Virus record (IMG/VR): IMGVR_UViG_2687453449_000004
Coordinates: 1 to 20,029 of that record
Reading direction: 5' to 3' (one strand)
DNA length: 20,029 bases
Source: a virus
Lineage: Duplodnaviria; Heunggongvirae; Uroviricota; Caudoviricetes
The notes under the pieces were generated by a model. It did no database searches and had not been told where the DNA came from. It saw nothing but the letters and a program-made list of their open reading frames with translations. This document shows, piece after piece, positions 1,692 through 5,998 of this stretch. Positions within the stretch are counted from its first letter, which is position 1, and each line of letters begins with the position of its first letter. Both the position numbers and the translations under genes were made by a program.

Positions 1692-1832
1692 TAGATTTAG
1701 AAAATTATTATATCCAATTGAATTAAAACAATTTTATACTTAACGAACATCTAAACTTGTTTTTTTACCTTCACCATAACTCGCTGATTTTGTATAGTTT
1801 ACGTAGCGTTTTGATAACCACTTTATGGCAAA

Positions 1833-2162
1833 ATGGAGGTTCGCTTGAAAACTTCTGTTCTTATCCAGAAATTAATGGAAATTGACAAAACTGTACTATT
1901 CGATGCGGACGTAGTGACCGGTGAGGAATGGTGGCCAACCCCGATTTCTCGTGTTTATCACAATCCGCCACATACTTATGTAGAATTTTAAACAGGTGAA
2001 CAATCTCAAAATGAATCTGACGAGCTAAGTGTTTATAGCGAATTACAAATTTGTGCACATCGAATGATGCAAATTAGAGATTTTGTGCAATCTAACGAGG
2101 GACTGAAACCTGAAAAAATTGTTTCGGAAATAAACATTCAAATTGAACGTATTAAAAAGTGA
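1833..2162 (+). pseudogene. Hypothetical ORF interrupted by one in-frame TAA (1989-1991)
   Basis: Single reading frame gives MEVRLKTSVLIQKLMEIDKTVLFDADVVTGEEWWPTPISRVYHNPPHTYVEF*TGEQSQNESDELSVYSELQICAHRMMQIRDFVQSNEGLKPEKIVSEINIQIERIKK*. Both halves look protein-like and the frame is maintained across the stop. Confidence 0.3.
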
Positions 2163-2227
2163 TGGCTGAAGCAATTCTGAAACACTAATTCATATTCTAT
2201 GTTATTCATACCAATGTGGATTTAACT

Positions 2228-2261
2228 CCCACCAACCCACCAACCCACCAACCCACCAACC
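2228..2261. repeat. Tandem octanucleotide repeat (CCCACCAA)x4 plus CC
   Basis: Read directly: cccaccaacccaccaacccaccaacccaccaacc, about 260 bp upstream of the restriction gene start. Confidence 0.9.
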
Positions 2262-2517
2262 ATGATTGGGCGGCGCAAGAAACTAATATCAATTAAAACA
2301 GCAAGTTATCAGTCTAAACAGAACACCAACGGGATGGAGGAGAGACAAAAAATATCCAATGAAACCGTAGCGCGTCAGCATTCAAAAGCGGGGTTTCTTA
2401 TTTTTACTTCACCAGTAACAAATACACTGTATCATAACTACATAAAAATGATTGTTCTGACTCAGATGAATTTCTTACTCTTGTAGAATGTCACTTAATG
2501 TTATTTATAGGTAAACA

Positions 2518-4407
2518 ATGAAATCCGAAACGCTAACCATCCAGCAAATTTTCCAAAATCAACGACAATATCGTGTTCCATTCTATCAACGTGCCTACGT
2601 ATGGACGCAACGAAACCAATGGTCAGCTTTGCTGGAGGATATCTTCGAAAAAGCACAGAGCCGACTTTCGGGAACAAAACCAACCCCTCATTTCCTCGGC
2701 GCGGTGGTGCTGGAACCTCAACTCAAAAACAGCTTGTTAGGTGTAGATACCATACATATTATTGACGGCCAGCAACGTTTAACCACTCTTCAATATATTC
2801 TGGCATCCATTCGATTATCATTGCGTGCTACAGGCCTTTCTGAACTGGAAGGGTTAGTATTGACTTGCTTGAAAAATACAAACGAAGCAACGATGAGAAA
2901 TAAAAAGGTAGAATGCTTCAAACTGTGGCCAACTTTTCGAGATCAAACTCATTTTATTCAAAGTCTTAATGTTGATAATATTGACGATCTCCGTAATGTA
3001 TTTTCTGATAGCTTCACGCAACATGGTACGTTACGTAAACATTTCAACCACCCGCCGTCACTAGAGGCATTATGGTTTTTTACTGAAGCCTTTATAAAAT
3101 GGATTAAAATAGAAAACCGCTCACCACAAGAAAATGCTGTAGCACTAATTGAGGCTGTCTTGACGGATCTGAAACTGGTAAGCATATTTCTCGAAGCTGA
3201 AGATGATGCCCAAATAATTTTTGAAACATTAAATGGGCGAGGAGCGGAACTTCATGCAACGGATCTTATTCGCAACTATATCTTTATGTGCGCTGAGCAT
3301 GAAAATATTAATACTATTGAATTATATGAAAATGAGTGGAAGATCTTTGAAGATAAATACTGGTCGGAAAAGCAACGCCGTGGACGTATTAATAAACCAC
3401 GCATGGAGTGGCTTGTACATGCGACATTGCAATCAGAAAGGCAGCGTGAAATTGATCTGTCTCGCCTTTACAATGAGTATCGTGATTATGTAAGTAAGGA
3501 CTTGCCTTCACAACGAGCAGATCTGCAAGTAAAGCGCCTCAAACAATATGCATCACAATATAAAGAATTGGTTGGTGGTTTTGGCACAACCCCAATCTCA
3601 CACTTTGGACATCGCATCGCAGCCTATGATGTGACGACACTCTATCCGCTTGCTTTGTTCATTTCGATAGCTAACATCGCCGATGATGAGAAAGCAGCCA
3701 TGTATAATGATCTTGTCTCCTACGTAGTACGAAGATCCGTATGTGGCCTGACGCCAAAGAATTACAACAATGTATTTATGAATGTATTGCGACACTTGTC
3801 TAAAACGGAAATTTCCAGTATTGAGTTACGTAATATCCTCAATAGCTTAAATGGCGAAGCCTCACGTTGGCCTGGGGACTCAGAATTTCTCAACGCTTGC
3901 ATCAATGCTCCACTTTATCCTGGCAGGCTCGACGCACCGAAAATGCGCTCAATGTTAACGGAACTTGAAAGAGAACTTTGTCGCCAAGTGAAGACAGAAA
4001 AGCCTGATGTTCCAAATCTTTCTAATCTCGATATCGATCATCTTATGCCTCAAAGTTGGTATTCCTGTTGGCCTCTCGAAAATGGTCATATGGTGACAAA
4101 TTCAGATGCTACGGTAATGAACCAAATTGTTCTGTCTGGAACCGATCTTACCCCTGAACAGCTACTGGTAAGGAAACGGCAACAAGCGATAGCTACGTTG
4201 GGAAATCTAACTTTGCTTAACCTTAGCGTAAACCGTTCCGTTCAGAATGCTGTATTTCTGAAAAAACGTGATGCTCTCATCGTCCACACCAATCTACGAC
4301 TGAACATACCACTTATACTTAAGGATAAATGGGATGAGAGTGAAATACTGGAGCGAGGTAAAAAGTTGGGGGAAATTGCATTGAAAGTATGGCCAAAATA
4401 CGATTAA
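2518..4407 (+). CDS. GmrSD-family type IV restriction endonuclease (N-terminal DUF262/ParB-like NTPase domain, C-terminal DUF1524 His-Me finger nuclease domain)
   Basis: 629-aa ORF. N-terminal motifs FYQRAYVW and IIDGQQRLTTLQ (DGQQR signature) and C-terminal DIDHLMPQS ... LGNLTLLNLSVNRSVQN fit the DUF262+DUF1524 fusion architecture. AT-rich relative to the prophage structural genes. Confidence 0.8.
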   Translation: MKSETLTIQQIFQNQRQYRVPFYQRAYVWTQRNQWSALLEDIFEKAQSRLSGTKPTPHFLGAVVLEPQLKNSLLGVDTIHIIDGQQRLTTLQYILASIRLSLRATGLSELEGLVLTCLKNTNEATMRNKKVECFKLWPTFRDQTHFIQSLNVDNIDDLRNVFSDSFTQHGTLRKHFNHPPSLEALWFFTEAFIKWIKIENRSPQENAVALIEAVLTDLKLVSIFLEAEDDAQIIFETLNGRGAELHATDLIRNYIFMCAEHENINTIELYENEWKIFEDKYWSEKQRRGRINKPRMEWLVHATLQSERQREIDLSRLYNEYRDYVSKDLPSQRADLQVKRLKQYASQYKELVGGFGTTPISHFGHRIAAYDVTTLYPLALFISIANIADDEKAAMYNDLVSYVVRRSVCGLTPKNYNNVFMNVLRHLSKTEISSIELRNILNSLNGEASRWPGDSEFLNACINAPLYPGRLDAPKMRSMLTELERELCRQVKTEKPDVPNLSNLDIDHLMPQSWYSCWPLENGHMVTNSDATVMNQIVLSGTDLTPEQLLVRKRQQAIATLGNLTLLNLSVNRSVQNAVFLKKRDALIVHTNLRLNIPLILKDKWDESEILERGKKLGEIALKVWPKYD

Positions 4408-4429
4408 TGCAATTAATAAAATGATTATA

Positions 4430-4453
4430 GCGGCCTTACATTAGTAAGGCCGC
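4430..4453. terminator. Perfect 10-bp stem-loop (GCGGCCTTAC-ATTA-GTAAGGCCGC) between the convergent restriction gene and pin remnant
   Basis: Inverted repeat read directly, 23 bp after the restriction-gene stop codon. Confidence 0.6.
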
Positions 4454-4632
4454 AACTCACTATTAAATCCTTTAATTTGCATCAAGAACAGCACTGTCAG
4501 CCCTAGGCTCTCGGACTTTGTACCGCTTATCTTGTCTTCAAAAATCAGCTCGCATCCTGCACAGTTCAACGCATTACGTTGTAGATCTGTGTTCTGGTCA
4601 TTTATTGATACGCGTACATAGCCAATAAGCAT
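4441..4632 (-). pseudogene. pinE: Pin/Gin/Hin-family serine DNA invertase, N-terminal remnant only (about 41 conserved residues)
   Basis: Minus-strand translation from ATG at 4632: MLIGYVRVSINDQNTDLQRNALNCAGCELIFEDKISGTKSE, the canonical invertase N-terminus including the catalytic Ser. It then diverges (SLGLTVLFLMQIKGFNSELRPY*) and stops. A full invertase would be about 190 aa. Track ORF 4441..4668 includes an upstream extension. Confidence 0.8.
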
Positions 4633-4658
4633 AGTGGATCCCTCTGACAAAAGCAGGA

Positions 4659-4994
4659 ATGATGCCATTTGCTCGTTATTTCTGCATTTTCATAAACGTT
4701 GGTTTGGGAGAAGGTGCTAACTGGGTTATGTTACCTAGAGGAATGATAATTCAGCGTGTTTATCTTGGATTTCCTGTCGGCACCAATGTAAGACACATAA
4801 CTTTCCCCCGGTCGTTTACAACAACGAACTATTCCATCTCAATTAACTGGAATGATATCGGTACTGTAACAACTGAAACACAATCTCCAGCAAATGTGGC
4901 GGTTGTTCATCAAACAAAATCATTAACAGGGGCCAGCATCTGGCAGGCAGGTCCCGGGGGATTTAATGTGGACATTATAGCGGTGGGGTATTGA
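4659..4994 (+). CDS. Tail-fibre C-terminal cassette lacking an N-terminal constant region (StfE-like silent alternative)
   Basis: 111-aa ORF that begins at or inside the pix-like site and ends 1 bp before a tfa gene. No fibre N-terminus and no obvious RBS. Placement matches the silent stf fragment in Din-type inversion systems. Confidence 0.5.
   Translation: MMPFARYFCIFINVGLGEGANWVMLPRGMIIQRVYLGFPVGTNVRHITFPRSFTTTNYSISINWNDIGTVTTETQSPANVAVVHQTKSLTGASIWQAGPGGFNVDIIAVGY
4687..4712. promoter_or_regulatory. pix/cix-like 26-bp invertase crossover site
   Basis: ttttcataaacgttggtttgggagaa; the reverse complement TTCTCCCAAACCAACGTTTATGAAAA has the two-half-site architecture (TTnTCnnAAACC) of Din-family sites. 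It lies about 55 bp from the pin start codon at the edge of the tail-fibre cassette. Confidence 0.6.
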
Positions 4995-4995
4995 T

Positions 4996-5487
4996 ATGTA
5001 CGTATGGAGCGCTAAAGCAAATGGCTTTTTCCCCATATCGGAGAAAGAAAAATTTGAGGCATCAGGTCTGTGGCCTGATGATGGTGTAATAGTCAGTGAG
5101 GAAGAACATAAAAAGTTATTTATGGATATTCCACCAGGAAAACAGATTGGAACACTGAATGGAAAACCAGCACTGATAGATATTCCTCAGCCGACCAAAA
5201 AGGAATTAATAGCTATTGCTGAAGTTAAAAAATCCCAATTACGGGAAAAAGCTGACAGTGAAATATCCTGGCGTCAGGATGCTGTTGATGCTGATATCGC
5301 AACTGATGAAGAAGCTACAACTCTCACCCAATGGAAGAAATACCGTGTGCTGCTGATGCGTGTTGATACGTCAACAGCACCCGATATTGAATGGCCTACG
5401 CCTCCGGCAGTTCAGGCCAGATGGCATCCGGCGCGGTGCTGGTATCTGTTGCCGTCACCGCGTCAATGTAATCCAGCACAGCGTTAA
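4996..5487 (+). CDS. Tail fibre assembly protein (TfaE-like), with an unusual C-terminal extension
   Basis: 163 aa; contains the conserved Tfa C-terminal peptide VDTSTAPDIEWPTPPA, then continues about 25 codons into the antisense of the convergent tfa gene. Confidence 0.7.
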   Translation: MYVWSAKANGFFPISEKEKFEASGLWPDDGVIVSEEEHKKLFMDIPPGKQIGTLNGKPALIDIPQPTKKELIAIAEVKKSQLREKADSEISWRQDAVDADIATDEEATTLTQWKKYRVLLMRVDTSTAPDIEWPTPPAVQARWHPARCWYLLPSPRQCNPAQR

Positions 5488-5998
5488 GGCGGGTTGTTTC
5501 TGCCTGCGTCAGTTTACGTCCGGCCTGCAATTTCAGCTGAATCAGACTGATGGAAGCCATTGCAGTATCAATCAGTGACTGGCGCTGTGCTTCTGCTGCA
5601 TCTACTGCGGCGCTATGCTGTGCTTCGGTATCCGTCACCCATTTCTCACCATCCCATTTATCGTATGGCGTTAACGGGGCGATAGTGGTTGTATTATCAG
5701 GGTAATCACCCGGAGCTGTGATTTCTTTTGATTCTCCTGTTTCGGTGCTAAAGACGATTTCACCGCGATGGTCTGGCACATATTCCCATGAGTTAAAATC
5801 TACAGATCGGCAGATTGCATAACCAGCTTTGTATGTGCCAGGGGCATCTAAACAGGAATATGCAGGGATACCGACACCCACAGCAAGATATTCAGTTGAT
5901 GTGGAAATATATTCCCGTGTTTCGCCATCATAGTTATAGACGGTAATATTCCCCGCCTTTGTAGCAATAAACTCGCTATTTAATACAGCGTTATCCAT
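5396..5998 (-). CDS. Tail fibre assembly protein (TfaP-like)
   Basis: 200 aa, N-terminus [33 protein letters not shown]-terminus TDTSTAPDAIWPELPEA, both typical of the lambda/Mu Tfa family. Start abuts the upstream fibre gene stop (coupled). Confidence 0.8.
   Translation of the reverse strand: MDNAVLNSEFIATKAGNITVYNYDGETREYISTSTEYLAVGVGIPAYSCLDAPGTYKAGYAICRSVDFNSWEYVPDHRGEIVFSTETGESKEITAPGDYPDNTTTIAPLTPYDKWDGEKWVTDTEAQHSAAVDAAEAQRQSLIDTAMASISLIQLKLQAGRKLTQAETTRLNAVLDYIDAVTATDTSTAPDAIWPELPEA

Follow-up and report, generated by a model that had tools for sequence, protein, structure and literature searches.

The octanucleotide tandem repeat upstream of the restriction gene in this prophage is most probably a neutral variable-number tandem repeat (VNTR) that was born in the vestigial core of a phage attachment (att) site, a reading to which we give a probability of about three in four. 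The window, that is, the whole stretch of 20,029 nucleotides that was analysed, carries at 2228–2261 on the plus strand a perfect (CCCACCAA)x4.25 microsatellite, seen by direct reading and by TRF, which reports period 8, 4.2 copies, 100% matches and the consensus CCCACCAA; other strains have 2–11 units. Five occurrences of the octamer were counted in the window, where 0.75 would be expected; four of them are the tandem copies, and none of 100 shuffled sequences reached five. The sequence-only reading of the window had described four copies of an octanucleotide at this position, about 260 bp upstream of a GmrSD-like gene, in AT-rich cargo and abutting the ATG of a 74-aa ORF. This description is borne out by our measurements: 256 nt separate the tract from the GmrSD ATG (2518), the tract region has a GC content of 0.35–0.39 and belongs to the cargo end of an e14-like prophage, and the ATG of the 74-residue ORF (ORF74, 2262–2486) stands directly at the tract end. 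Its further suggestion of a phase-variation tract survives in part, since the tract is slippage-prone and changes in length in 8-bp steps, whereas a role as a switch for the restriction gene does not follow from the comparative evidence presented below.

Judged by its gene content, the locus forms the right end of an e14-like prophage whose integration site is icd. The nearly identical locus of E. coli LST200A (L001) is annotated in RefSeq as ycgX, ymgL, ymgK, iraM, icd', a DUF262 protein, a truncated recombinase, and tail-fibre, tail-fibre assembly and baseplate genes. The icd' remnant at 1527–1694 on the minus strand, a displaced host 3' fragment of isocitrate dehydrogenase, marks the right prophage junction according to the annotation of L001 and the homology to K-12 (icdC side), and the same junction was found in 13 of the 13 tract-bearing genome loci that were read. 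DNA homology to K-12 reaches up to 1701 and starts again from 4497; the stretch 1702–4496 is therefore a cassette replacing the 3' part of pin together with mcrA of the K-12 e14, in which pinE and mcrA occupy the corresponding slot. The cassette begins with an icd-type prophage arm (1702–2212, plus strand), 91% identical to that of the sister prophages in GPEC206-621 (L029) and L030. It contains a small gene (1833–2162) with an in-frame TAA at 1989–1991 in 14 of the 14 tract-bearing sequences aligned; the gene is intact in both sister prophages, where GAA replaces TAA and a 113-aa hypothetical protein is annotated, and it has no family match in Pfam, PHROG or PADLOC. The restriction gene at 2518–4407 (plus strand) encodes a single-chain GmrSD-type (DUF262 + HNH/DUF1524) type IV restriction endonuclease of 629 aa, with Pfam matches to GmrSD_N (2.1e-33) and GmrSD_C (3.8e-19) and a full-length match (1–629) of 1516 bits to the PADLOC family mREase_IV, and represents a prophage defence cargo in the place of mcrA in the K-12 e14. 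The remnant of a truncated pin-type DNA invertase (4489–4632, minus strand; annotated in L001), within which the K-12 homology resumes, forms the inner boundary of the cassette.

The length of the tract has changed recurrently among close relatives. We surveyed 5,426 complete E. coli genomes for the segment 2080–2410 and found it in 55 of them, one copy each and in every case chromosomal. The matched lengths depart from 331 bp in 8-bp steps only, except in two records with homopolymer deletions of 1–2 nt. Alleles of two and of three units are present in 14 genomes each, six units in 13, four units in seven, five units in four, eleven units in two, and seven units in a single genome; at 13 of the 55 loci, with all length classes represented, the tract sequences were read directly. 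Contigs from IMG/VR and metagenomes with the same flanks add alleles of 2, 3, 4, 5, 7 and at least 10 units. An identical copy number in all isolates, named by the sequence-only reading as evidence against its proposal when it called for this comparison, was thus not seen, the 55 genomes ranging from 2 to 11 units.

Substitutions in the 2.7 kb outside the tract were counted for comparison with the changes in tract length. Alleles of five and six units (L004 and L010) have no SNP between their flanks, nor do alleles of six and two units (L011 and L012), and a single SNP separates the window with four units from L002 with eleven. Two flank haplotypes, about a dozen SNPs apart, each bear several lengths: 3, 4, 5, 6 and 11 units on haplotype A, and 2, 4, 5 and 6 units on haplotype B. 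The tract of H22 has five copies of the variant unit CCCACTAA, indicating that variant units have been multiplied as well, and such propagated variants fit duplication by slippage. The tract is thus hypermutable, with replication slippage as the probable mechanism, and its rate of length change is probably orders of magnitude higher than the per-site substitution rate. The rate is probably not extreme because records of near-identical chromosome length, taken in pairs, agree in tract length, which is weak evidence. The tract has the perfect tandem units in non-coding DNA, changing by whole units independently of the flank haplotype, that characterise a neutral VNTR or microsatellite, and it shares its variation in length between close relatives with contingency loci. 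A 24-mer of the tract is also present in five unrelated viral contigs of IMG/VR, which have three to four units in other contexts, most likely by chance.

The origin of the tract can be traced to the 3' end of the tmRNA gene, ssrA. A plasmid search in distant mode matched window positions 2244–2352 to an intergenic stretch of the phage-like plasmid NZ_CP148393.1 with 75% identity (E 6e-9), where the homologous arm is preceded by GGACGCTGGTTCAACTCCCGCCAGCTCCACCA, the same 3' fragment of ssrA. This ssrA-type arm is present in several hundred E. coli chromosomes. In JJ1886 (L026), ssrA lies at 2635–2997 of the locus according to both the RefSeq annotation and ARAGORN (tmRNA, tag ANDENYALAA), and the homologue of window 2262–2352 begins at 3001, 3 nt past ssrA, with about 76% identity (E 9e-7 to 2e-8 against 28 Gb). 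After the arm, JJ1886 has a hypothetical gene, rnlBA, a pin remnant and tail-fibre assembly genes; from these comparisons, the JJ1886 element is the same prophage end, integrated at ssrA. The stretch 2262–2352 (plus strand) of the window is accordingly homologous to DNA directly after ssrA in ssrA-integrated e14-like prophages and a phage-plasmid, and can be described as a former att arm, which overlaps the non-conserved ORF74.

GPEC206-621 (L029) carries the icd' junction followed by the arm and small gene as in the window, with 91% identity. At the exact position of the tract it has GGGTTCAACTCCCGCCAGCTCCACCA, the unmutated 26-nt 3' end of ssrA, and its flanks are colinear with the window. 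Past GGGTTCAACTCCCGCCAGCTCCACCA come an arm 95–96% identical to those of JJ1886 and the phage-plasmid, an intrinsic terminator and a pair of type II restriction-modification genes. Aligned with the ssrA end, the two-unit allele (L012) matches it base by base except for four small changes, from CCCGCCAGCTCCACCAAT to CCCACCAACCCACCAACC; in the alignment, ssrA reads CT CCCGCCAG CTCCACCA ATC ATGATTGG and the allele CT CCCACCAA C-CCACCAA CC ATGATTGG. The ssrA end CCCGCCAG-CTCCACCA-AT is itself a direct repeat of 8 nt, though an imperfect one, which comes with the acceptor/CCA end of tmRNA. The T-arm part is degenerate in the window, GGATTTAACT versus GGGTTCAACT, so that the vestigial 3'-end fragment of ssrA, consisting of the T-arm remnant GGATTTAACT and the octamer tract, covers 2218–2261 on the plus strand. 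The positional orthology with GPEC206-621 and the base-for-base alignment identify the tract as the decayed att core of an ssrA-type module within an icd-integrated prophage: it derives from the 3' end of tmRNA, and the arm after it is that of ssrA-integrated elements. The icd-type arm meets the ssrA-type module at the left edge of the att core, which hints that the two were joined at the att site.

Rfam searches (at the gathering threshold over the whole window, and at E≤10 over 2100–2520) and ARAGORN gave no RNA, tRNA or tmRNA match at the tract; even the intact ssrA fragment in the phage-plasmid gives a sub-threshold Rfam tmRNA match (10 bits, E 0.63). An array of integrase arm sites serving the icd junction was also considered for the tract, and was rejected because the tract lies about 530 bp from that junction and is accounted for by the ssrA homology.

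These observations can be combined into the following probable course of events. The e14-like prophages come in icd-integrating and ssrA-integrating versions, the latter having the last ~26–31 nt of the tmRNA gene followed by the arm and then by a slot for defence genes. In the lineage of the window, a module of ssrA fragment, arm and GmrSD gene lies within a prophage integrated at icd, in which the ssrA fragment has no job to do. Two G>A transitions, the deletion of one T and a T>C change, in an order that we can only infer, produced the perfect duplication CCCACCAA-CCCACCAA-CC, which replication slippage has then probably expanded and contracted to 2–11 units. Transcription of GmrSD would most likely start from the conserved ~200–220 bp just upstream of its start codon. 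On the anatomy of the locus, the tract probably has no effect on GmrSD.

The chief competitor of a neutral VNTR is a transcriptional phase or rheostat switch, in which 8-bp steps, each about three quarters of a helical turn, would alter the spacing or helical phase between an upstream element and the GmrSD promoter, or affect read-through of transcripts begun upstream of the tract, perhaps by way of a template-strand G-quadruplex; clones would then differ in their expression of GmrSD. The tract does change length recurrently, it lies upstream of a defence gene in the same orientation, and defence genes are typical targets of phase variation in other bacteria. The minus strand of the tract reads (GGGTTGGT)n, and 2228–2254 reads GGGTTGGTGGGTTGGTGGGTTGGTGGG, a predicted G-quadruplex motif with four G3 runs and loops of 1–7 nt. 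GGGTTGGTGGGTTGGTGGGTTGGTGGG is the sole canonical motif of this type when both strands of the 20-kb window are considered; it lies on the template strand of GmrSD and is present only at four or more units. No terminator was found between the tract and GmrSD, the fold of 2320–2420 having a z of 0.12; the ancestral terminator past the ssrA fragment and arm has been lost in the window lineage, and transcripts from a promoter-like site at 1770–1798, upstream of the small gene and the tract, could consequently cross the tract into GmrSD. That site came from a sigma-70 scan that yielded no more sites than shuffled sequence. The same caution applies to TTCACC-16-TATCAT at 2408–2435, the only sigma-70-like match before GmrSD, which stands 147 nt downstream of the tract and is not kept in IHE3034.

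The anatomy of the locus gives no support to the switch proposed by the sequence-only reading. The tract is separated by 256 nt from the start codon and by 147 nt from the nearest promoter-like match, it is too long to fit between promoter hexamers, and it lies within no conserved ORF. Two GmrSD homologues with 92.7% and 96.7% amino-acid identity keep the proximal ~200–220 bp of the upstream region with 71–85% identity, and at the position of the tract these repeat-less loci have decayed, non-repetitive sequence. The proximal region common to GmrSD loci with and without the repeat corresponds to 2297–2517 (plus strand) of the window and includes the match at 2408–2435 as well as a TAGAAT box (2484–2489). 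In addition, decay of the att core fully accounts for the existence of the tract, the allele lengths show no clustering, and the equal lengths in pairs with near-identical chromosomes suggest, weakly, moderate rates instead of those of contingency loci. We therefore regard regulation of GmrSD by the tract, including such a transcriptional switch, as possible but unlikely. A variant that accepts the origin from ssrA seems improbable too: the att-core fossil would have been co-opted as a contingency element after loss of the terminator, with read-through and the number of units tuning GmrSD by helical phasing or by the template-strand G-quadruplex at four or more units. If this were true, the locus would be an E. 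coli prophage with a phase-variable type IV restriction system.

Several features of the upstream region and of the gene differ between lineages. Position 2485 is A in the window, L001 and L002, and G in all other strains; the A gives rise to the TAG stop of ORF74 as well as to the lineage-specific TAGAAT box, which resembles a −10 element and lies 28 nt ahead of the GmrSD start codon. Relative to IHE3034 and strain 82.0312, the tract-bearing lineage has about 10 extra nucleotides (TTAATGTTAT) at 2495–2510, between this box and the ribosome-binding site. In 2014C-3338 (L003), which has four units, GmrSD is annotated as frameshifted, and the restriction gene is thus decaying in at least one lineage. 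The nearest GmrSD relative in other genera has 80% amino-acid identity, and its upstream region is unrelated; in Leclercia plasmids, the DNA shared with the window does not begin until 27 nt ahead of the GmrSD ATG.

Changes in tract length could also act on translation. Translation from GTG 2216 would continue across the tract and enter ORF74 only at n = 2, 5, 8 or 11, giving products of 84–108 aa that end 32 nt before the GmrSD start and could relieve polarity on GmrSD. The frame arithmetic and simulated alleles agree with this, and in-frame alleles (2, 5 and 11 units) are found in 20 of the 55 genomes, a share close to the one third that chance alone would give. No Shine-Dalgarno sequence precedes GTG 2216, and the frame of ORF74 is stopped in strain 82.0312 (L028), shattered in IHE3034 (L027) and hit by 1-nt indels in L007 and L009, in line with the earlier judgement that this ORF is probably non-coding. 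Neither ORF74 nor the fused ORF has a significant family match in Pfam, PHROGs or PADLOC, and part of ORF74 falls in DNA that forms a non-coding att arm in other elements. When a coding repeat was sought more generally, with 1–12 units simulated in all frames on both strands, the fusion of GTG 2216 to ORF74 was the only product longer than 50 aa, and it was rejected because ORF74 is not conserved. The tract is not inside a coding sequence that it could control, being 256 nt upstream of GmrSD and joined to a fusion that is not conserved, and we consider a translational frame switch very unlikely. No more credible is a tract that works as a recombination site, for example as a secondary att site for ssrA-specific integrases, with lengths changed by site-specific recombination instead of slippage. 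The descent from an att core and the junction of the icd-type arm and ssrA-type module at its left edge would suit such a site; against it, the core is mutated at several positions with a degenerate T-arm part, the lengths differ by clean multiples of 8 nt on unchanged flanks as is typical of slippage, and the icd' junction is the same in every tract-bearing locus read. Given the mutated core, the tract is unlikely to be still recombinationally active. Short tandem repeats might be miscounted in some assemblies, yet the recurrence of the tract, in discrete 8-bp steps between identical flanks, in 55 complete genomes produced by many laboratories, the agreement of independent metagenome and IMG/VR contigs, and lengths of 16–88 bp, far below the length of a sequencing read, leave an assembly or sequencing artefact with hardly any probability.

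The VNTR shares features with several known systems. Like the bacterial VNTRs and microsatellites used in MLVA typing of E. coli, it has perfect head-to-tail short units in non-coding DNA and a polymorphic copy number on otherwise identical haplotypes, although the traceable origin from a fragment of the tmRNA gene is unusual for a bacterial VNTR. It resembles the 3' fragments of tRNA and tmRNA genes that phages carry at att, as in ssrA-integrating prophages and islands of enterobacteria, in its position at the ssrA 3' end and its homologous arm; unlike those, the fragment is internal to an icd-integrated prophage, unjoined to a tmRNA gene, mutated and repetitive. Slipped-strand contingency loci for restriction-modification genes have in common with it a unit not divisible by three, length polymorphism and a neighbouring restriction gene. 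The contingency repeats of Haemophilus, Neisseria, Helicobacter and Mycoplasma are located in an ORF or a promoter core and generally contain far more units, whereas the tract here lies 256 nt ahead of the gene, outside conserved ORFs and absent from close homologues of the GmrSD module. The right-end slot of the K-12 e14 has the same icd'/iraM junction, the same place between pin and the att junction and likewise a type IV restriction enzyme, but that enzyme is McrA and the cargo has the opposite orientation, pin is truncated in the window, and K-12 is without the small gene and the ssrA vestige that the window has in this slot.

The locus has apparently not been described in the searchable literature. 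Full-text searches of 8 million papers for the 16-mer of two units in either orientation found nothing, the octamer alone being too common a string to inform; literature searches on e14, icd and GmrSD and on ssrA attachment sites returned nothing on this locus, and a distant-mode search of 1700–2600 against a phage database gave no match. The case might serve as a caution for genome scans: a non-triplet repeat beside a defence gene looks like a switch, and the comparative data point here to a by-product of mosaic prophage evolution. It might also illustrate how a microsatellite is born in bacteria, the imperfectly repetitive acceptor/CCA end of tmRNA having become slippage-prone by about four small mutations once it was freed from selection in the wrong prophage. 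As a typing marker, a polymorphic 8-bp VNTR found in about 1% of complete E. coli genomes could help to subtype the lineages that carry it.

The prophage end shows further variation around the tract. The slot next to pin contains GmrSD in the window, a type II restriction endonuclease with a C5-methyltransferase in GPEC206-621 (L029 4277–6953), RnlAB in JJ1886 (L026 3705–5130) and McrA in K-12 (L014 1847–2680). The right-end slot of e14-like prophages thus appears as a defence hotspot, whose cargo is exchanged between phages with different integration sites along with pieces of the att region. Beside the truncated pin-type invertase, in the region 4489–5998, the window has tail-fibre C-terminus and assembly genes in both orientations, at 4659–5487 on the plus strand and 5396–5998 on the minus strand; this invertible tail-fibre segment has probably become fixed in a single orientation. 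In the phage-plasmid, the tail-fibre assembly region (L025 5911–6108, minus strand) has a strong Rfam match to IS009 with 213 bits, and the homologous tail-fibre region of the window has no Rfam match at the gathering threshold. In H22 (L013 266–1634), genes for an excisionase and for an integrase interrupted by an internal stop precede icd' in the place of iraM and ycgX, an arrangement that suggests tandem or nested elements at icd.
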